Positions 7,351 through 27,042 of a DNA stretch of 64,000 nt are shown one piece after another. This DNA is from Bacilli bacterium (GTDB lineage Bacteria > Bacillota_I > Bacilli_A > RF39 > UBA660). Under the pieces are notes generated by a model, which was not told the DNA's origin, searched no databases, and saw nothing but the letters and a program-made list of their open reading frames with translations. The stretch spans positions 2,010 through 66,009 of the forward strand of contig JAFWEE010000013.1 of NCBI GenBank assembly GCA_017515795.1. The letters run 5' to 3'. Position 1 is the first letter of the stretch; the number at the start of each line of letters is the position of its first letter. The translations under genes and the position numbers were made by a program.

Positions 7351-8250
7351 TTACAAGATAATGTACTCTATAGGAATAATTCTTTTATTAGAAGTGTATT
7401 CTATATAATAGCCTTTATTTTTTCTACATAATATAATACCTTCGGTATAATTTTCATCATTAGTCTTTAAATGCTTATCTATATAATTCATATATACTTC
7501 TATTTGCCCTATGTGTTCTTTTTTTAATTCAGTTACTTTTAATTCTATAACTATATAACACTTATATTTAATATTATATAAAAGTAGATCTATAGAATTA
7601 TAAGTATCTCCTATTTTAATCCTGTATTCATTCTTTACAAAAGTGAATCCTTCTCCTAGTTCTTCGAGAAATGATGGTATTTTATCAAGAATCATTTCTT
7701 GAAGAGCCCTTTCAGATATATCATCATGATTTTTTGTATCCCTGATAATTATAGGATTCTTAACATAATCAACAACACTTGTTTCTTTACTTTCGATTAA
7801 TTTTTCTTTTGTTTTCTGTGGAAGTCTCTCATATTCATTAGATTTAATTCTCTGTCTTAGTTCTCTAACGGATAGATTATTGCATTCAATTTTACTAATA
7901 TAATAATTTATTTTGTCTATATTACTTAACGATAATAATTCAAGATAATGAGACCAAGTCAATTGGTCAGACATTGTCTGACCTTTTAAAGAATATAGAT
8001 AAAAACTTCGCATATATTTAAGATTTGTAATTCCATATCCTTTACCTAATTCTCTAGTTAATCTAGCAGAATACTCTTTTATAAGCTTATTTCCATATTT
8101 AGCTCTTTCTTCACCGCCTTGGGCTATTACTATTTCTTCGCCTACTTTTAAATAAGTTTCTAGGTCACTTCTATTCTTGCTATAGTCTTTAATTCTTTTC
8201 TTTATTTCATTATTAATTAATAGTTCTTTTATATTATTATAATGGTCCAT
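7351..8250 (-). CDS. YhcG/DUF1016 family PD-(D/E)XK nuclease-domain protein
   Basis: LTWSHYLELL, LSVRELRQRI, FLEELGEGFTFV, IDLLLY...VIELK, GQIEVYMNY. Confidence 0.88.
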   Translation of the reverse strand: MDHYNNIKELLINNEIKKRIKDYSKNRSDLETYLKVGEEIVIAQGGEERAKYGNKLIKEYSARLTRELGKGYGITNLKYMRSFYLYSLKGQTMSDQLTWSHYLELLSLSNIDKINYYISKIECNNLSVRELRQRIKSNEYERLPQKTKEKLIESKETSVVDYVKNPIIIRDTKNHDDISERALQEMILDKIPSFLEELGEGFTFVKNEYRIKIGDTYNSIDLLLYNIKYKCYIVIELKVTELKKEHIGQIEVYMNYIDKHLKTNDENYTEGIILCRKNKGYYIEYTSNKRIIPIEYIIL

Positions 8251-9391: not shown

Positions 9392-9483
9392 AATAATTCC
9401 TCCTTTCACATATATATTATTATAATTATATGAGGAGCTACAAGCAATGATTTTTAACATTTGTTTATATTATATGTTAGATA

Positions 9484-9533
9484 TATTTTTAGATAAAAAT
9501 ATTAGTTTAAAAATATATTTTTATCTAAAAATA
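9484..9533. repeat. Perfect 19-bp inverted repeat, 12-bp spacer
   Basis: TATTTTTAGATAAAAATAT (9484-9502) / ATATTTTTATCTAAAAATA (9515-9533). Confidence 0.85.
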
Positions 9534-9622
9534 ATATATATAAGGATTAAAATTTTATTTTATATATATTAAAAATTGTATTTTAGTATTACTAAAAAGG
9601 AGTTTTAGTATTGGAACTCTTG

Positions 9623-9814
9623 CAAAAAATAGATTTTTGAGATCAAAAGGACTCAAAAACCAATTTTTTGGAAGAAAAGACTCAAAAAAAGAGATTTAGA
9701 GAGAATAAGGAGCAAAAAAATGATTTTTGTATAACAAAAATGACTTTTTTGCATATATATTTATAGTTTTATATTCAAAAAATAAATTTTTGTATAGCAA
9801 AAATTATATTTTTG
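9623..9814. repeat. Array of six CAAAAA-N5-TTTTTG boxes
   Basis: Copies start at 9623, 9654, 9713, 9735, 9776, 9798; degenerate copies near 9683, 9828, 9881. Confidence 0.85.
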
Positions 9815-9938
9815 AAAGAATATTAATCAAAAAAGAGATTATTAATAGATTTTTATTACTAAAAAGATATTATTGGTAAGTAAAAATAGAATTTTGGGAA
9901 AAGAAAAAGAACCAAAATTGGTTCTTCGTTTGTAACAA

Positions 9939-11441
9939 TTAACTTCTTGCTTCTTTAGACTCAATTATATCATTTAAATCATTAATGATTTTTCTGCATT
10001 CCTCAGCTGATACTTTTACATTATTTTTAATACATTCTTTTGGATGAACAAGATTTCTTGTTACACGTATTTCATGTGCTTTGGTAGACTCATACCAATA
10101 TGGTTTAACAACAATTTTCAATTTTTGAATAATCTTGTTTAATTCTAAATCTCTTCCATCATCACCTAAAGCCACATCTAATATATTATCAGTCTTCTCA
10201 TATTCTGAAAGCCAATCTAACAGAATAGCTTCCAAAATAGAACCACATAGAATAATTGCAGATTTATAAGCGTTATTTTTAAAGCAAGTCTCAACCTCTT
10301 TTAAATCGTCGTTAATTAGTTCTTTAATCACTTTGTTTTTCATTTTAGAAATTGCACTAATAATATCATCATTGATTATTTTTTGTGATTCACTTTTATA
10401 TTCGGATTTATATGAATTTCTAATTAACTCATTGATCTCATATGGAGTAAGTTTTTTCGAATTCATAGTATATTGCATAACTTCATCAGCATTTTTAAGC
10501 ATCTCTTCAGTTGGAACAATTACTTTTAATTCTCCAAAATCCTTTTTCGTTAAAGCAGGAAAATATGAGCAATGTTGTGTAGAATTAAAGTAAATTCTAG
10601 CTTTTTCATCATTTAAATAACTAACTAAATAGTTATTCATTTTCTTCTCTTTAACTCTTAAAATACAATAGTTTCCAGATTTTATGTACACATCATCATA
10701 GTTTTTATTATATAAATAGAACTTTGGCTTTTCACCTACAAGTAAACAAATAATATCTCCATTAACAACTTTTATTGCTCTCGACAATCTTGCCTTAGGC
10801 AATTTTTCATAAACTAACGGATATTCAAAAGATTTTGAATCAATATATTTTGCTTCTATATCCTTATCAGTTGGCGCAGATACTATATCTGCTATATCTT
10901 TTAATAGTTTATATTCACTTTCTTGAAGTTCTTTCCTTATCTTTATGGCCTGCCTTGTATAATATATTGGATTTAGATTATTTTCATCAAACATTGAATA
11001 ATCACTTATGTTAAGATCATCTCTATCTACTTTATTCATTTCAATATAAGAATTAATATTTTCAATAAAATTATTAAAATCTTCAGTTTTATTTTTTAAC
11101 TCATGCCATTTTCCATCATAAGGACTTTTTCCTTGCTTTTCTGCTACTTTACCATTAAATATACCTGTTAAAAAAGTGGATGGTTTTGACATTGTAAAAT
11201 GAATTAAAGCAAAGTTGATTCCTGTCAAAGCAAATGGGCTTGGAATTTGAATAATAATATCTATATATTTATCAGCAATCGACTCACAAATGTTTTTGTT
11301 TAATACTCCTACTGGTAATAATGCATAATCATATTTATATGATCCATCTACAATTGAATCATATAAAGAATCCCTACCTATACCATAAAGAGGATATTTT
11401 TGTCTATATTCAAGTACTTCATCAAAATTCATTTTATTCAC
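9939..11441 (-). CDS. Fusion of a methyltransferase C-terminal remnant, an HsdS-like target recognition domain and a HEPN domain
   Basis: ALLPVGVL...IQIPSPFALTGINFALI (MTase-like, no SAM-binding or NPPY motif); LKDIADI...NGDII...YLVSYLN...ALTKKDFGELKVIVP (TRD); EVETCFKNNAYKSAIILCGSILEA...RNLVHP (HEPN RX4H). Confidence 0.65.
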   Translation of the reverse strand: MNKMNFDEVLEYRQKYPLYGIGRDSLYDSIVDGSYKYDYALLPVGVLNKNICESIADKYIDIIIQIPSPFALTGINFALIHFTMSKPSTFLTGIFNGKVAEKQGKSPYDGKWHELKNKTEDFNNFIENINSYIEMNKVDRDDLNISDYSMFDENNLNPIYYTRQAIKIRKELQESEYKLLKDIADIVSAPTDKDIEAKYIDSKSFEYPLVYEKLPKARLSRAIKVVNGDIICLLVGEKPKFYLYNKNYDDVYIKSGNYCILRVKEKKMNNYLVSYLNDEKARIYFNSTQHCSYFPALTKKDFGELKVIVPTEEMLKNADEVMQYTMNSKKLTPYEINELIRNSYKSEYKSESQKIINDDIISAISKMKNKVIKELINDDLKEVETCFKNNAYKSAIILCGSILEAILLDWLSEYEKTDNILDVALGDDGRDLELNKIIQKLKIVVKPYWYESTKAHEIRVTRNLVHPKECIKNNVKVSAEECRKIINDLNDIIESKEARS

Positions 11442-11495
11442 CTAATTTGATTATATCATATTAAATACTTATTTTTAAAAATAAAAAGAACAATA

Positions 11496-12113
11496 TTATT
11501 GTTCTTTTATATGGCCTATCTTTTTTCCATTAATATCTTCTTGAACTATTTCAAAAGTTTTAGGTGGTAATAAACCAACAATCATTAATGGCGTTGTTAG
11601 AATATTGTTTAATGGTTTTAAATATTCAACATATTTTTCATAACTACCTACAGCGCCATCAAATCCACCTGCTTTTTTCATTTCATCCGTTGCAGCAATT
11701 ATTATTCCAACCTTAGTTTGTATTGCTTTTTGAACGTGATTTAATTCGCTCGATAAAACCGGTTTAATTAAATTCCATGATACGTTTCCCCCATGGTTAA
11801 AAGCTACTTCAATAGCAACATCTTCTTTGGCAAAATCTAATCTCCATGTTCCTTTATTATCTGAATAATCTGGATCAGCAAAGATAAAACTTTGTCTTTC
11901 CCAACCTTTATCAACTAATCTTTCGTCTATTAGTTCATTAATTGCTTGAGAAATACTTTTTGCCTTTCTATGTTCAGTATTAAACTTATCTATAATATCC
12001 TTATCAGTAATATTAGTTAATGCATCAGTTAATTCACTCCATAATTTATTAATATTTTCATCCTCTACAAATATTTCGTGTGCATGTCTATGCGAATAAG
12101 TAATAAATTCCAT
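11496..12113 (-). CDS. BglII/BstYI-family type II restriction endonuclease
   Basis: RLDFAKEDVAIEVAF PD-(D/E)XK-like core, VGIII, GSYEK; divergent from a DNA methylase. Confidence 0.75.
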   Translation of the reverse strand: MEFITYSHRHAHEIFVEDENINKLWSELTDALTNITDKDIIDKFNTEHRKAKSISQAINELIDERLVDKGWERQSFIFADPDYSDNKGTWRLDFAKEDVAIEVAFNHGGNVSWNLIKPVLSSELNHVQKAIQTKVGIIIAATDEMKKAGGFDGAVGSYEKYVEYLKPLNNILTTPLMIVGLLPPKTFEIVQEDINGKKIGHIKEQ

Positions 12114-12241: not shown

Positions 12242-13486
12242 ATGAAAAAAACAGTTGTAGAATTATTCGCTGGTGTTGGTGGATTTAGATGCGGATTAAA
12301 CAACGTCGAATTGAAAAATGATAAAGTTATTGAAAATGGTGATTGGAAATTTGTATGGGCTAATCAATGGGAGCCAGCAACAAAAACTCAAGAAGCATTT
12401 GATTGCTATGTTAAAAGATTTGGTGATAAAGATGCTAGTAATGTTGATATATTTGAAGTAGATAAAAAGAAAATACCTAATCATACATTACTTGTTGGTG
12501 GTTTTCCATGCCAAGACTATTCAGTAGCTCAAACACTATCAAACAGTAAAGGTATTGAAGGAAAAAAAGGCGTTCTATGGTGGGCAATAAACGATATATT
12601 AAAAATAAAGAAACCTCCATTTGTTTTATTAGAAAATGTTGATAGGTTATTAATATCTCCTGCAAAGCAAAGAGGAAGAGACTTTGGAATAATTCTTAGA
12701 AGTTTTCTTGATAACGGATATGCTGTTCAATGGAGAGTTATAAATGCCGGAGAATATGGACTTCCTCAAAAAAGAAGAAGAGTATTCATATTTGCATATC
12801 ATAAATCAACTAATTACTATAAACAATTATCAAAGAGTAATCCAAAAGATATTATTTTTAAAGAAGGAATGTTTGTTAAACAATTTCCAATTAAAAATAA
12901 AGAATTTGAATTCAACACATCAAACATATCAAAAGACTCATTTGATAATTTAATAGATGTAAGTAATAAATTTAAAACTCAATTCTATAATTCTGGAGTA
13001 ATGATGAATGGAAAAGTATATACTTCAAAAGTAATCTCAGACTGCAACGAAATATTTCCACTAAAGGAAATAATCCAACATGAAGAAGTTGATCAAAAAT
13101 TCTTTTTAAGTGATGAAGCATATAAAAAATTTAAATATTTAAAAGGAAATAAAAAAATACCTAGAGTTAAACCAAACGGGGAAGAATACTTCTATACTGA
13201 AGGTGCTATGCCATGTCCTGATAACTTGGAATCTCCTGCTAGAACAATGCTAACTAGTGAAGGAGGAATAAGTAGAACAACTCATATAGTTGAAGATTAT
13301 AAAACAAAAAGAATCAGACTATTAACTCCAATTGAATGTGAAAGAATTAATTGTTTTCCAGATAATTGGACTAATACCGGAATGACAGATAAAAAACGAA
13401 ACTTCATGATGGGCAATGCTTTAGTAGTTGGAATTATAAAAAAAATAGGTATAGAACTAGATGAAATAATAAAAAAAGAAGATTAG
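12242..13486 (+). CDS. dcm: C5 cytosine DNA methyltransferase, M.Sau3AI-like (probably GATC)
   Basis: ELFAGVGGF, GGFPCQDYS, ENVDRLL, QKRRRVFI, MGNALVV; segments WANQWEP, QRGRDF, PARTMLTSE closely resemble M.Sau3AI as I recall it. Confidence 0.92.
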   Translation: MKKTVVELFAGVGGFRCGLNNVELKNDKVIENGDWKFVWANQWEPATKTQEAFDCYVKRFGDKDASNVDIFEVDKKKIPNHTLLVGGFPCQDYSVAQTLSNSKGIEGKKGVLWWAINDILKIKKPPFVLLENVDRLLISPAKQRGRDFGIILRSFLDNGYAVQWRVINAGEYGLPQKRRRVFIFAYHKSTNYYKQLSKSNPKDIIFKEGMFVKQFPIKNKEFEFNTSNISKDSFDNLIDVSNKFKTQFYNSGVMMNGKVYTSKVISDCNEIFPLKEIIQHEEVDQKFFLSDEAYKKFKYLKGNKKIPRVKPNGEEYFYTEGAMPCPDNLESPARTMLTSEGGISRTTHIVEDYKTKRIRLLTPIECERINCFPDNWTNTGMTDKKRNFMMGNALVVGIIKKIGIELDEIIKKED

Positions 13487-13502
13487 AAAATCTTCTTTTT
13501 TT
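13471..13502. terminator. Bidirectional terminator between convergent dcm and DGQHR genes
   Basis: AAAAAAAGAAGATT-AGAA-AATCTTCTTTTTTT. Confidence 0.8.
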
Positions 13503-14604
13503 AATAATTAAACGGATTAAAATCATCTAAAGATTCATTTTTAATTTTATTACACCAATCTTCCGCTAAAACAGTTGTTGGTGTTTCACCACCAAAAGGA
13601 TTCAAACCTAATGACTTAATATAATTCCCATCTGGATTAAATAAATCTGAAGGAATATAACATTCTGTACCTGTTACTCTCTTTATTGTAGAAGATACAT
13701 ATTTTCTATTAAATAACTCTCTTTCTGATACTGCCTTATCGTATAAAGTAGGTAACATTAATATCATAAATCTAAATCCAGCAATTTTAGAAAACGGAGC
13801 ATAGTTTTTATCTCTATCTGTTATTTTTATTCCAACAGCATCTTCCCAACCGCATAGATATTCTGACAACAATTTAAATGTTATTTCATCAGATAATTCA
13901 TTCCCACCAAGAAATTTAATTTTAGACTTAGCTAAAATATTAATGATTTGTTCTGCCTTAAATCCACCAACTATTTTTTCTCCACCCATTATAATTCTTC
14001 CTTTTAGTGGAGAAGAATTTTCAGTATTTAATAATTCAACTACCTCATGATAAGTTTTTTCTTTATCCGATAACATGTTTAATTGTTTTCTAAACCAAAG
14101 TAATAAATTTGATTCAACTTGTTTTTGTTCCTCATTAGTATTTTTGAATATAAGTCTTCTAGTTCTTAATGATGGTGTTACATACATATTAAACGCTAAA
14201 TCATAATCTACAGAGTCATCAATTTTAATTTTTTCTTCTAAGAAAGAAAATAATCTGTGTTGACCATCCATTATATCAAAACAATTCTTATACTTTTCAA
14301 ATTCCTCTTTTGTTTCAGGAAACTCGGTATAATATAAATTATCTATTTCCGAATCTTCAACTTTTTTTGGATACAATCTATTATCATCACACGTTCCAAT
14401 AACAATTGATGTCGATAATGTTCCACCATTTGAAACGAATTCTGCTATTGAATCTAGTCTTTTAGGATTAACAGGTCTTTGAGCGTCTTGGACCTCATCA
14501 AACTCAGCCTTAGTTGCCATTTTTACTAAATCCCTAGCAGAAGCAGAACCAAGATAACTTGTTTCCTTATTCTGTTTTACTTCTAAAAGATATATTTTTT
14601 TCAT
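13501..14604 (-). CDS. DGQHR (DndB/ParB-like) domain protein
   Basis: QRPVNPKRLDSIAEFV, IMDGQHRL, FKNTNEEQKQV; start moved to ATG 14604 after AGGAGG. Confidence 0.85.
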   Translation of the reverse strand: MKKIYLLEVKQNKETSYLGSASARDLVKMATKAEFDEVQDAQRPVNPKRLDSIAEFVSNGGTLSTSIVIGTCDDNRLYPKKVEDSEIDNLYYTEFPETKEEFEKYKNCFDIMDGQHRLFSFLEEKIKIDDSVDYDLAFNMYVTPSLRTRRLIFKNTNEEQKQVESNLLLWFRKQLNMLSDKEKTYHEVVELLNTENSSPLKGRIIMGGEKIVGGFKAEQIINILAKSKIKFLGGNELSDEITFKLLSEYLCGWEDAVGIKITDRDKNYAPFSKIAGFRFMILMLPTLYDKAVSERELFNRKYVSSTIKRVTGTECYIPSDLFNPDGNYIKSLGLNPFGGETPTTVLAEDWCNKIKNESLDDFNPFNY

Positions 14605-14614
14605 AAAAAACCTC

Positions 14615-15091
14615 CTATACAATCTTTAATAAGTATCTAATCTGATAATCTATACTATCATTTTTCTTTTCATTACAATTACTACATAGCATCTGTAAAT
14701 TATTCTCGAGCTCATCACCAACATACTTAAATGGTACAATATGATCAGCATGAGAATTAATATCTATTTTTTTTCCGCAAAAAGCACATTTATAATTTTG
14801 TTGATTAAGTAATTTTATTCTTATACTATCATCTATTACTTTTCTGAATGAAGACTTATTTAAAAACGCATTCACTAGCAGTAATAATCTGTCAATTTTT
14901 TCATCAGATAAAGTCTCACCATATTCCCTTTCTACGAGTTTCATAATAGAATTTTTAGGAGATGATGAACTTGCTAAAATATTTCTTAATTTATTTCTTT
15001 CATTATAATCATCATATGCAACGCAAATATTTTTAAATATAGAAAGAAGTTGTGCTTCTTCTACAGCATTTAATAAAGACAATTCAGGCAT
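14615..15091 (-). CDS. HNH endonuclease with N-terminal helical domain
   Basis: CAFCG...ADHIVP...NLQMLCSNCNEKK. Confidence 0.9.
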   Translation of the reverse strand: MPELSLLNAVEEAQLLSIFKNICVAYDDYNERNKLRNILASSSSPKNSIMKLVEREYGETLSDEKIDRLLLLVNAFLNKSSFRKVIDDSIRIKLLNQQNYKCAFCGKKIDINSHADHIVPFKYVGDELENNLQMLCSNCNEKKNDSIDYQIRYLLKIV

Positions 15092-15991: not shown

Positions 15992-17530
15992 TTAAAAAAT
16001 TATTTCCACACAATTTTCGTTAATGATATTTTTAATATAGTTTATAAAAGGTATTAATAATTTTGTGTTATCTTTAACTAATGAATATAAATTATATAAA
16101 TATTCGAAATAACATTTTTCAATTTCTACTTCAGAAAAAACTGTTACTCCATCAAGGAAATATGACATTTTTACTTGATCATTGAATAATAATTTATCTA
16201 ATTTATAAGGTATATTTTCAATTAGTTCTTGTACATTGATTTCAGAAAGTTCATATGATATTTGAAATCTAACATCTAATTCTGAATTACCAAATCTATC
16301 AGTTTTTTCATAATAAACAATATTGTTCATAATATCAGTTAATTGTTCTTTTATTTCCTTATTAGTGATTTTTTTATCCACTATAATCTCTTCATTTACT
16401 TTTTTGCTCTCTTTAAATCTTTTTATATCTTCTTCTATTTGTTCAATACTTTGATATCTTTCGTTTTGATCATTTATTAAACATTTATCAATAATTTTAT
16501 CTAAAAATTCCATTCTAATACCTTTATATTTATCAGTAATAGGTTTGCGGTGTGTTCCTTTATGTGGCTCATTATATACAATCCATTGCATTATTTGACC
16601 TATTGAAAATATATCAGATGCCTCAGTAGGTGTTTTCTTTCTATCTCGCTGTTCAGGAGCAGAAAAATCAAAGTTTGCCAATCTATCTCCTTTTTGAGTT
16701 TTAATATTTATATCAAAATTATCTGGATTATAATATGCTATCCCAAAATCAGCAATATTTAATCTATTATTTTCGTCAATTAGGATATTGTTTGGCTTAA
16801 GATCTCTATGAATAATTCCACTAGAATGTAGCTTTTTTACCGCATTTATTATTTGTGTAAATATCAATATAATTTCATCATCGGAAAATTTTTCTTTATA
16901 GATTAGGCTATTATTATACTTTTTCATAACTATAATAGGAACTCGTGCTTCATTAATTATTATATCATCATAAAAATATTGTTTAACTATTCCTTCAAAA
17001 TTATTAATTTCCATAATAACATTAATAAATTCGCGAAGAAATCTTTCCTTTTTTTCAGCAGTTGAGTTCGTAAGAATTTTAATAGCTACATCATGCTTAT
17101 TTAATTCTCCAAAATATACTTTGCCATTAGCTCCACATTTACATTCAAGAGATACATTTTTTATACATCCCATTCTTGTATTTATTTCAAAGTTGTTTTC
17201 TTTTAAATATTTACTTATATCCATTTCTTTAGAATAAACTTTTGTTTCTACATTCATATTATTCTCCATATTATCAATTAATGGGTAAATTATTTCTTTT
17301 AGTCGATCTCTTCTTTTTTCATATCCACCTATTTTTTGAAATTCGTGTCTTAAATCATGTTTTGTTTTGGATTTTTTTAATTCATTTGGAATATCAACAT
17401 TATATTTAACAAGACATTTCTTTAGACTATTCAAATTATTATAAAATAAATTTTCATCATAATCATTTTTATTATATGTAACAATGTCCTCTAATGCTAA
17501 ATAAAAACCTTTTAACTCTTTTATATCCAT
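15992..17530 (-). CDS. Hanks-type Ser/Thr protein kinase, soluble, with extra N- and C-terminal domains
   Basis: [32 protein letters not shown] all intact; no TM or PASTA. Confidence 0.92.
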
Positions 17531-26334: not shown

Positions 26335-27042
26335 TTAATTATATATAAATACCATTCTATCTCTACCTTGCATATCTTTTTTACATTCAATAGAGGCTTC
26401 TGGTAAATATAATTCTTTTAGAGATTTAATTCTATCATATTGAGTCATACCTATTTCAAAAGCAATTATATATTTATCCTTTAAAATAGTTTTAATGTCT
26501 TTTAATATTCTTTCATAGAACTCTAACCCATCATTATCAGCATATAAAGCAATATTTGGTTCATTTTTATATACTATATCCATTATTTCTTCATCTTTTG
26601 ATATATATGGTGGATTAGATATTATTATATCAAATTTATTATTTATTCCTGTGTATAAATCAGTATTAATAAATGTTATATCAGTATTATTTAATTTAGA
26701 GTTATTTTTAGCTACTTCTAGGGCATCTTTTGATATATCTGAGGCAAATACATTAGAATCTATCTCTTTAGCTAAAGAAATAGCTATACAACCTGATCCA
26801 GTGCATAAATCTAATATATCTATTTTAGTATTAAATGTAGATTTAATCCTTTTAATAGTTTCAGAGACTAATTCCTCTGTTTCAAATCTAGGTATTAATA
26901 CACTATGATTAACATTAATTATATTACCCATAAAATCTACATTACCTACTATATATTGAACAGGTTCTCCATTATTAAGTCTTTCTAATGCTTCATCTAG
27001 ATTACCATTATAATATTTCTTTAAATATTCTATATCTGTCAT
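26335..27042 (-). CDS. prmC: Release factor glutamine methyltransferase
   Basis: VLIPRFETE, DLCTGSGCIA, SNPPYI; follows prfA. Confidence 0.95.
   Translation of the reverse strand: MTDIEYLKKYYNGNLDEALERLNNGEPVQYIVGNVDFMGNIINVNHSVLIPRFETEELVSETIKRIKSTFNTKIDILDLCTGSGCIAISLAKEIDSNVFASDISKDALEVAKNNSKLNNTDITFINTDLYTGINNKFDIIISNPPYISKDEEIMDIVYKNEPNIALYADNDGLEFYERILKDIKTILKDKYIIAFEIGMTQYDRIKSLKELYLPEASIECKKDMQGRDRMVFIYN

Follow-up and report, generated by a model that had tools for sequence, protein, structure and literature searches.

A methylase remnant, a target recognition domain and a DUF4145-type HEPN domain in one polypeptide: a candidate restriction-linked abortive-infection ribonuclease

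A stretch of 64,000 nucleotides (nt) from a Bacilli bacterium of the RF39 lineage UBA660 (GenBank assembly GCA_017515795.1, contig JAFWEE010000013.1, positions 2,010 to 66,009 of the forward strand; hereafter the window, with positions counted from its first letter) carries on its minus strand a gene for a protein in which the remains of a DNA methylase, a single target recognition domain (TRD) and a HEPN domain are fused. The N-terminal two thirds of this fusion protein go back to a type I/IIG-like module of methylase and TRD, fused in one chain, from which the S-adenosylmethionine (SAM)-binding and catalytic half has been lost. The C-terminal HEPN domain, of the DUF4145 type, is the conserved working part of the family. 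This family is large, widespread and unnamed, and its gene is usually the last of a restriction operon. By analogy with known effectors, the protein is probably a restriction-linked abortive-infection ribonuclease (RNase), a self-contained single-protein effector in which the dead methylase/TRD module would serve as the sensor. The gene and its parts, all on the minus strand, are as follows.

9939..11432, minus: coding sequence of the 497-residue fusion protein, stop codon included (open reading frame (ORF) finder, homologue starts)
11088..11432, minus: gamma-class N6-adenine methylase remnant, residues 1-115 (profile alignment, Foldseek, long relatives)
10917..11087, minus: helical linker between methylase remnant and TRD, residues 116-172 (predicted structure, helices 117-132 and 155-171)
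10458..10916, minus: single HsdS/TaqI_C-type TRD, residues 173-325 (PADLOC, NCBIfam, PDB matches)
10278..10457, minus: helical spacer, residues 326-385, with one helix of about 38 residues (predicted structure)
9942..10277, minus: DUF4145-type HEPN domain, residues 386-497 (Pfam in relatives, Foldseek, motif)
10044..10067, minus: putative catalytic motif R456-V-T-R459-N460-L-V-H463 (family alignment)

A first-pass annotation, made from the letters of the window, had described the gene as an ORF of 500 amino acids (aa). The ORF listing and the sequence do give 500 codons from a GTG (9939-11441, minus strand) and the frame is intact, but the length needs correction. The GTG at 11441 belongs to an AGGTG ribosome-binding site (11439-11443), and an ATG at 11432, six bases past it, aligns with the N-termini of homologues (MNFEE.., MDFEK..). 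Because this ATG coincides with the homologue starts and the GTG sits within the ribosome-binding site, the start is most likely the ATG at 11432 and the product 497 aa long. The predicted structure of the full-length protein has a mean predicted local distance difference test score (pLDDT) of 84.5 and a predicted template modelling score (pTM) of 0.73.

The C-terminus had been read as a HEPN domain at the outset, and matches across the family bear this out. Of the 43 relatives aligned, 25 gave a DUF4145 match at E<=0.01, the best being 9.9e-7. Residues 340-497, when modelled with AlphaFold2 (pLDDT 82.7), form five to six helices, and the PDB list returned by Foldseek for the isolated domain consists almost wholly of HEPN proteins, among them 2hsb (AF_0298), Csm6, the sacsin HEPN domain, HepT and AbiV, with template modelling (TM) scores of up to 0.73. 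Within the putative catalytic motif R459, N460, V462 and H463 are invariant and R456 is kept in at least 90% of sequences; the pattern R..RN..H was present in 123 of the 146 top representatives of the family. The assignment therefore rests on family-level profile matches, an invariant motif and a fold similarity with weak E-values. The first-pass annotation had labelled the stretch RNLVHP as RX4H, which was a miscount: R459 gives R-x3-H and the near-invariant R456 gives R-x6-H. It is the latter pair, R456-x6-H463, that fits the Rx4-6H criterion for HEPN domains.

The most similar HEPN domain was seen in DUF4145 proteins of about 272 aa from Actinomycetota (L012:5521-6339 and L013:5704-6531). 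Their genes overlap the 3' end of genes for superfamily 1 (SF1)-helicase/MTES_1575-nuclease proteins of about 1500 aa, another HEPN-after-nuclease arrangement. Proteins of about 250 aa that hold the helical spacer and the HEPN domain only were also found in metagenomes and on a predicted viral contig (L074, an IMG/VR contig, L045 and L046), and these are 41% identical to residues 342-493.

The methylase part retains the strands and helices that lie past motif IV (motifs V-VIII). In a joint alignment with full-length relatives the short proteins start just past motif IV, so that the SAM-binding motif I (FxGxG) is absent, as is the catalytic motif IV, (D/N/S)PP(Y/F/W), with no NPPY/F in the window protein. 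When the family profile was aligned with hhalign, residues 32-86 corresponded to residues 375-437 of an HsdM encoded beside a relative, past its NPPF (probability 77%, E 2e-5), and Pfam N6_Mtase (PF02384) was matched by three of the 43 members of the alignment set. The best PDB matches of the full-length model were CamA, M.BseCI, BpuSI and PglX (Foldseek; E 4e-9 to 1e-3), which are fused methylase and TRD enzymes, and the Foldseek matches included Ocr-bound structures of the same fold class (7eew, 2y7c, 8q56 and 8zek).

Further evidence for the origin of this part came from an exhaustive profile search, which recovered relatives of 736-800 aa that align colinearly with the short form and whose extra 260-300 N-terminal residues complete the Pfam N6_Mtase domain (E 1e-21 to 3e-72); one of them also has HsdM_N. 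Six longer relatives in all keep N6_Mtase, five of 736-800 aa and one of 601 aa (P0175, P0185, P0187, P0197, P0217 and P0144). Across these six, motif IV reads SPPF, QPPF, IPPF, YPPF, NVPA or DLPM and is thus mostly non-canonical, and motif I is often degenerate. To judge from these few sequences, catalysis seems to have been lost before the methylase was shortened. In a FastTree phylogeny of short and long forms, which has many long branches and is noisy, the five forms above 700 aa are scattered, with at least three changes between forms. Together the long and short forms outline how a methylase domain would decay stepwise and end as a non-catalytic module: in the full-length members the motifs are mostly degenerate, and in the others a stump is left.

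Two earlier claims, that only the C-terminal part of the methylase fold is present, without SAM-binding or NPPY motifs, and that no frameshifted N-terminal half lies upstream, are both upheld: the first by the alignment to HsdM and the long relatives, the second because the 54 nt upstream, followed by an intact gene for a BglII-like nuclease, leave no room for a lost half. The candidate of a split methylase completed in trans was rejected, the sole N6_Mtase-like match in the 66%-complete assembly (26335-27042) being a PrmC/MTS-type housekeeping methylase. Beside an Anaerolineales relative (P0078) a gene for a 208-aa generic class I SAM methyltransferase (GDFGCGWG; L005:7378-8004) shares 4 nt with the start of the fusion gene; no such methyltransferase was found upstream of another member of the same branch (L033).

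The middle of the protein had been described as a single HsdS-like TRD, and this description holds. The TRD matched PADLOC Specificity_I (E 5e-7), NCBIfam MAD5 S subunit weakly, and in the PDB the S subunits 7vru_C (E 2e-9) and EcoKI 2y7c_A; Methylase_S was matched by 13 and TaqI_C by seven of the 43 relatives. The spacer that follows, residues 326-385, resembles the conserved coiled-coil spacer that trails a TRD. Public records name members of the family either 'restriction endonuclease subunit S' or 'hypothetical'. The former annotation, together with a long helix after the TRD as in HsdS, would agree with an alternative specificity subunit, an HsdS-like protein that joins HsdM and HsdR and brings along an RNase or a mere helical domain. 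This is very unlikely. An HsdS (PF01420) has two TRDs and two conserved coiled-coil regions and assembles with two HsdM, and there is one TRD here; the place of HsdM on the TRD is filled in cis by the protein's own remnant, as happens in fused methylase-TRD enzymes; the gene is also present where no HsdM is encoded; and the invariant HEPN motif argues for a catalytic role. The annotation of the family as a 'specificity subunit' in databases should be corrected.

The size of the family and its pattern of conservation bear on whether the gene is functional at all. A word-indexed search returned about 70 full-length homologues of about 500 aa and the exhaustive profile search at least 220 clusters (50% identity) at E<=1e-30. 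Among the top 146 representatives 106 measure 450-560 aa, 31 are shorter than 450 aa, many of them probably fragments, and nine are longer. Within the close clade the HEPN domain has a mean pairwise identity of 0.71, the TRD one of 0.57 and the methylase remnant one of 0.43. In true HsdS proteins the TRDs are the variable part, and a gradient in which HEPN is most conserved is the reverse of this. A decaying, functionless remnant of a methylase-TRD-HEPN gene might be suspected, since the N-terminal methylase half is gone and what is left of it is the least conserved part of the protein. Such decay is scarcely credible, being already contradicted by the conservation pattern: the frame is intact, more than 100 clusters keep the same architecture of about 500 aa and the invariant motif at identities down to about 25%, the whole protein is modelled confidently (pLDDT as given above), and the gene has promoter-like and terminator-like signals of its own. 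A pseudogene or truncated gene was likewise rejected, given the many homologues of the same length and the lack of room upstream; the first-pass annotation had named a family of intact methylases as the finding that would make it one, and the 106 representatives of 450-560 aa show that the homologues are not all of that kind.

The fusion gene is an accessory gene: a search of 40 related genomes, including 13 of the same genus, did not find it in any. No homologues were found in plasmid and phage collections; in IMG/VR there were two relatives only, both of the HEPN domain alone.

Around the gene, the features that bear on its expression and its nearest neighbours are the following.

11450..11479, minus: promoter-like site with an extended -10 element (TG-n-TATAAT), 18 nt 5' of the start codon (signal search)
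9906..9927, minus: intrinsic-terminator-like hairpin and T-run, 12 nt past the stop codon of the fusion gene (signal search)
11496..12113, minus: type II restriction endonuclease, BglII-like, immediately 5' of the fusion gene and co-oriented with it, Pfam E 4e-11 (Pfam, PADLOC)
12242..13486, plus: C5-cytosine DNA methyltransferase, divergent, the partner of the BglII-like nuclease (Pfam, PADLOC)

The site at 11450-11479 is the best promoter-like site of the region and comes after a hairpin that trails the preceding gene. Three terminator-like sites were found where 0.4 were expected; the window is AT-rich, with about 25% G+C. With promoter-like and terminator-like sites of its own, the fusion gene looks like a separate transcription unit. 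No small companion or antitoxin-like ORF of note lies beside it, and no known RNA family was found there with Rfam. The hairpin that follows the BglII-like gene (11479-11510; AGAACAAT-AAT-ATTGTTCT and a T-run) gave sub-threshold matches to plastid psbA 3' untranslated region hairpin families and is probably just a terminator. On the 3' side of the fusion gene, an AT-rich spacer of about 480 nt (9470-9935) holds short CAAAAA/TTTTTG-type repeats throughout and no credible ORF.

The genome of the window holds no detectable HsdM, HsdR-type ATPase or HsdS in its assembly (684 kb, 66% complete), and the window thus presents a minimal form, the fusion gene beside a type II system in a genome without detectable type I genes. 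Other genes of the same accessory cluster were noted. At 13501-15091 (minus) a gene for an HNH nuclease (158 aa) overlaps that for a DGQHR/DndB-like protein (373 aa; TIGR03187, E 3e-23), near which no dnd or dpd genes were found, and at 15992-17530 (minus) a 512-aa protein is encoded in which a Ser/Thr protein-kinase domain (Pfam E 3e-27) is flanked by unassigned regions. The opposite flank of the cluster, past divIC and a gene for a helix-turn-helix (HTH)/membrane protein, has a gene for a YhcG/DUF1016 PD-(D/E)xK nuclease family protein (7351-8250, minus).

Gene context was compared at 13 distinct loci of close relatives (>=54% identity), the window included, and at a handful of distant loci. 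A restriction nuclease or type I gene lies directly upstream in 11 of the 13, among them the window with its BglII-like nuclease, which shows the link to restriction drawn at first pass. At nine of them (L003, L007, L008, L009, L019, L020, L022, L035 and L036) the fusion gene is co-oriented after a type I hsdR or hsdS, in some cases overlapping the hsdR stop codon; in L019 a GmrSD gene is interposed between the type I operon and the fusion gene, and in L025 GmrSD alone precedes it. Among distant members one overlaps hsdR (L041), one the small class I SAM methylase gene described above (L005), and others stand alone.

Comparison of loci with near-identical fusion proteins shows that these do not follow their neighbours. 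Between L022 and L009 the fusion protein is 98.4% identical, HsdR 99.7% and HsdM 92.6%, and HsdS only 36%; the restriction system switched its DNA specificity while the TRD of the fusion protein stayed unchanged. The same pair is also, in its own right, a clean example of specificity-subunit replacement inside one type I system. The fusion protein of L020 is 84% identical to those of L036 and L022, and the neighbouring HsdRs are 25-27% identical. A specificity held in common with the neighbouring HsdS was rejected, since the similarity between the two TRDs (22-29% identity over 49-88 residues) is no closer than generic TRD similarity and HsdS was swapped between L022 and L009. The fusion protein neither reads the target site of its neighbour nor co-evolves with a particular partner protein. 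It is an autonomous, portable module that joins the 3' end of restriction operons, because HsdS was exchanged beside it, its HsdR neighbours are divergent, and it occurs after type IV and type II nucleases, here without type I genes.

No conserved universal partner gene emerged either. In a single clade the gene that comes directly after the fusion gene encodes a 163-aa PD-(D/E)xK-like protein. It was found at L036:6542-7033, L037:1185-1676, L038:561-1055 and L020:5412-5906, and further at L022:8551-9042, L008:3654-4175 and L023:7022-7465, and is absent from the window and from L009. The protein is 90-98% identical between loci, has a D...ExK-like motif (GVDIKLV...YIECKGK) and gave a weak match to NOV_C (PD-(D/E)xK-like).

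These relations weigh on the first of two alternative routes by which the HEPN domain might be switched on. PrrC is held latent by a type I enzyme and is freed by a phage inhibitor (via bioRxiv 10.1101/2023.04.06.535777), and with this PrrC/EcoprrI precedent the methylase/TRD remnant might dock on HsdR, HsdM or another nuclease, so that a phage inhibitor that disables the complex would free the RNase. The nine close-clade loci at which the gene directly follows type I genes, in some cases so closely that stop and start codons overlap, agree with such an arrangement. It is nevertheless improbable: proteins 84% identical stand beside the divergent HsdRs described above, members of the family also follow GmrSD and a type II nuclease, and there are no type I genes in the 66%-complete assembly of the window's genome. 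For these reasons a conserved specific protein partner is unlikely.

The second route is direct sensing of DNA, in which the TRD, perhaps with the remnant, would bind a motif or feature on incoming DNA and two protomers would form the HEPN site and cut RNA. In its favour, the protein keeps an intact TRD fold with reasonable conservation, its closest structural matches are methylase and TRD enzymes bound to DNA, such as CamA and M.BseCI, and HEPN RNases are generally dimeric (PMC13017515). Several observations make this reading doubtful. Motifs I and IV are absent, methylation is therefore impossible, and self DNA would go unmarked; a short TRD half-site would be frequent in the host's own chromosome as well; the TRD and the specificity of the neighbouring system do not change together; and the partner methylase in the window is of the C5 kind and belongs to a type II system. 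The first-pass annotation had proposed restriction-modification (R-M) parts repurposed as a DNA sensor and fused to a toxin. The repurposing and the fusion stand, with a dead methylase, one TRD and a HEPN domain in one chain. The DNA sensing is no more than a possibility, and one form of it is unlikely in view of copies 98% identical beside HsdS proteins that are 36% identical and of a protein without methylase activity of its own.

Our preferred account of the mechanism starts from other members of the HEPN class. RAZR, a DUF4145 protein, is an abortive-infection RNase that cuts single-stranded RNA once a phage protein assembles it and that needs R146 and H154, and the active site of HEPN nucleases is generally formed across a dimer (PMC13017515). 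By analogy, the HEPN domain of the fusion protein would be an RNase that stays latent until the methylase-remnant/TRD module binds a trigger. Binding may then bring about dimerisation or a rearrangement of the HEPN domains and so create the composite active site, and cleavage of RNA would arrest the infected cell, so that abortive infection would serve as a back-up to restriction. As the trigger we prefer a DNA-mimicking anti-restriction protein of a phage or plasmid, of the Ocr/ArdA type, which might be caught by the vestigial DNA-binding groove. There is precedent for such bait in Ronin, where HsdM and HsdS serve as bait for Ocr/ArdA-type anti-restriction proteins and the methylase activity is dispensable (bioRxiv 10.1101/2023.04.06.535777). 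The fusion protein may thus be a one-protein integrated decoy, with the dead methylase/TRD groove as bait and capture of the DNA mimic as the event that activates the HEPN RNase. This is put forward tentatively, as a possibility drawn from analogy, and is favoured because a DNA sensor could not mark self and a guard of a single complex clashes with interchangeable neighbours.

Several points weigh against a restriction-linked HEPN RNase. In the window protein itself Pfam DUF4145 (PF13643) stayed below threshold, at 16.9 bits against a cut-off of 23.1; the Foldseek E-values of the isolated domain were weak (>=0.085); and the spacing of the motif, R-x3-H from R459 or R-x6-H from R456, is unusual. 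Two of the close relatives (L001 and L034) have no recognisable restriction gene directly upstream, and distant members, at about 25-30% identity, often lie away from restriction genes (L005, L031, L033 and L044). A type I system may be present elsewhere in the genome of the window, the assembly being 66% complete. That the protein cuts RNA, is toxic, dimerises and answers to a trigger is in each case a prediction.

Bacteria defend themselves most commonly with restriction systems, which phages routinely disarm. To our knowledge, few of the second-line systems that answer such disarming are understood, namely PrrC, PARIS, Ronin and some retrons. A restriction-derived recognition module and an RNase in one chain would be a compact candidate guard and a simple model for work on the activation of HEPN nucleases. 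If the decoy mechanism is true, any accompanying restriction system, whether of type I, II or IV, would be guarded against counter-defence.

The use of a HEPN back-up effector at R-M loci is a well-known theme. PrrC (of the EcoprrI locus) and RloC are likewise HEPN-type RNases in or beside R-M operons and are presumed to provide a suicidal second line if restriction is blocked. Both have an N-terminal ABC-type ATPase, with a Rad50-like coiled coil in RloC, whereas Pfam, NCBIfam and PADLOC scans found no NTPase (nucleoside triphosphatase) domain in the fusion protein, which has a dead methylase and a TRD instead; its HEPN domain also belongs to the DUF4145 branch, and its neighbours are not conserved. 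Ronin (E. coli ECOR55) shares the use of type I methylase and specificity parts as a sensor of anti-restriction together with a toxic effector, without hsdR. Ronin, however, consists of three genes, with a complete HsdM, an HsdS with two TRDs and the 61-aa membrane toxin RonA, and the fusion is a single polypeptide with a truncated methylase, one TRD and HEPN, beside which there is no small ORF of note, HsdM or HsdS.

In its domain family the protein is akin to RAZR (PD-T7-4), which lies in the same Pfam HEPN branch and acts in abortive infection by cleaving RNA with a conserved Arg and His. RAZR differs in its N-terminal Cys4 zinc finger, in assembling around phage ring proteins, in having no domains derived from R-M systems and in the spacing of Arg and His (R146/H154, against R456/R459-H463 in the fusion protein). 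DUF4145 is a branch of HEPN that has repeatedly been fused to, or encoded with, R-M components (PMC3710099, PMC3632139). The fusions and operons published by Anantharaman et al. (2013) and Makarova et al. (2013) are alike in this respect, but the partners named there are a restriction endonuclease, an SF-II helicase, DndF and other domains. No mention of a methylase-remnant/TRD-DUF4145 fusion was found in the literature on DUF4145/HEPN fusions, and a full-text literature search found no description of an architecture combining HEPN with HsdS or a 'target recognition domain'. PADLOC (2023), NCBIfam and Pfam hold no system-level model for it, Specificity_I being the only PADLOC match, in keeping with the first-pass remark that this is not a named system. 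In structure CamA, M.BseCI, the type IIG enzyme BpuSI and BREX PglX show the same order of methylase C-terminal subdomain, helical linker, TRD and terminal helix, but these retain motifs I and IV, are active as methylases and lack HEPN. The closest relatives of the fusion protein are therefore PrrC/RloC and Ronin by function, RAZR by domain family and the fused methylase-TRD enzymes by structure.

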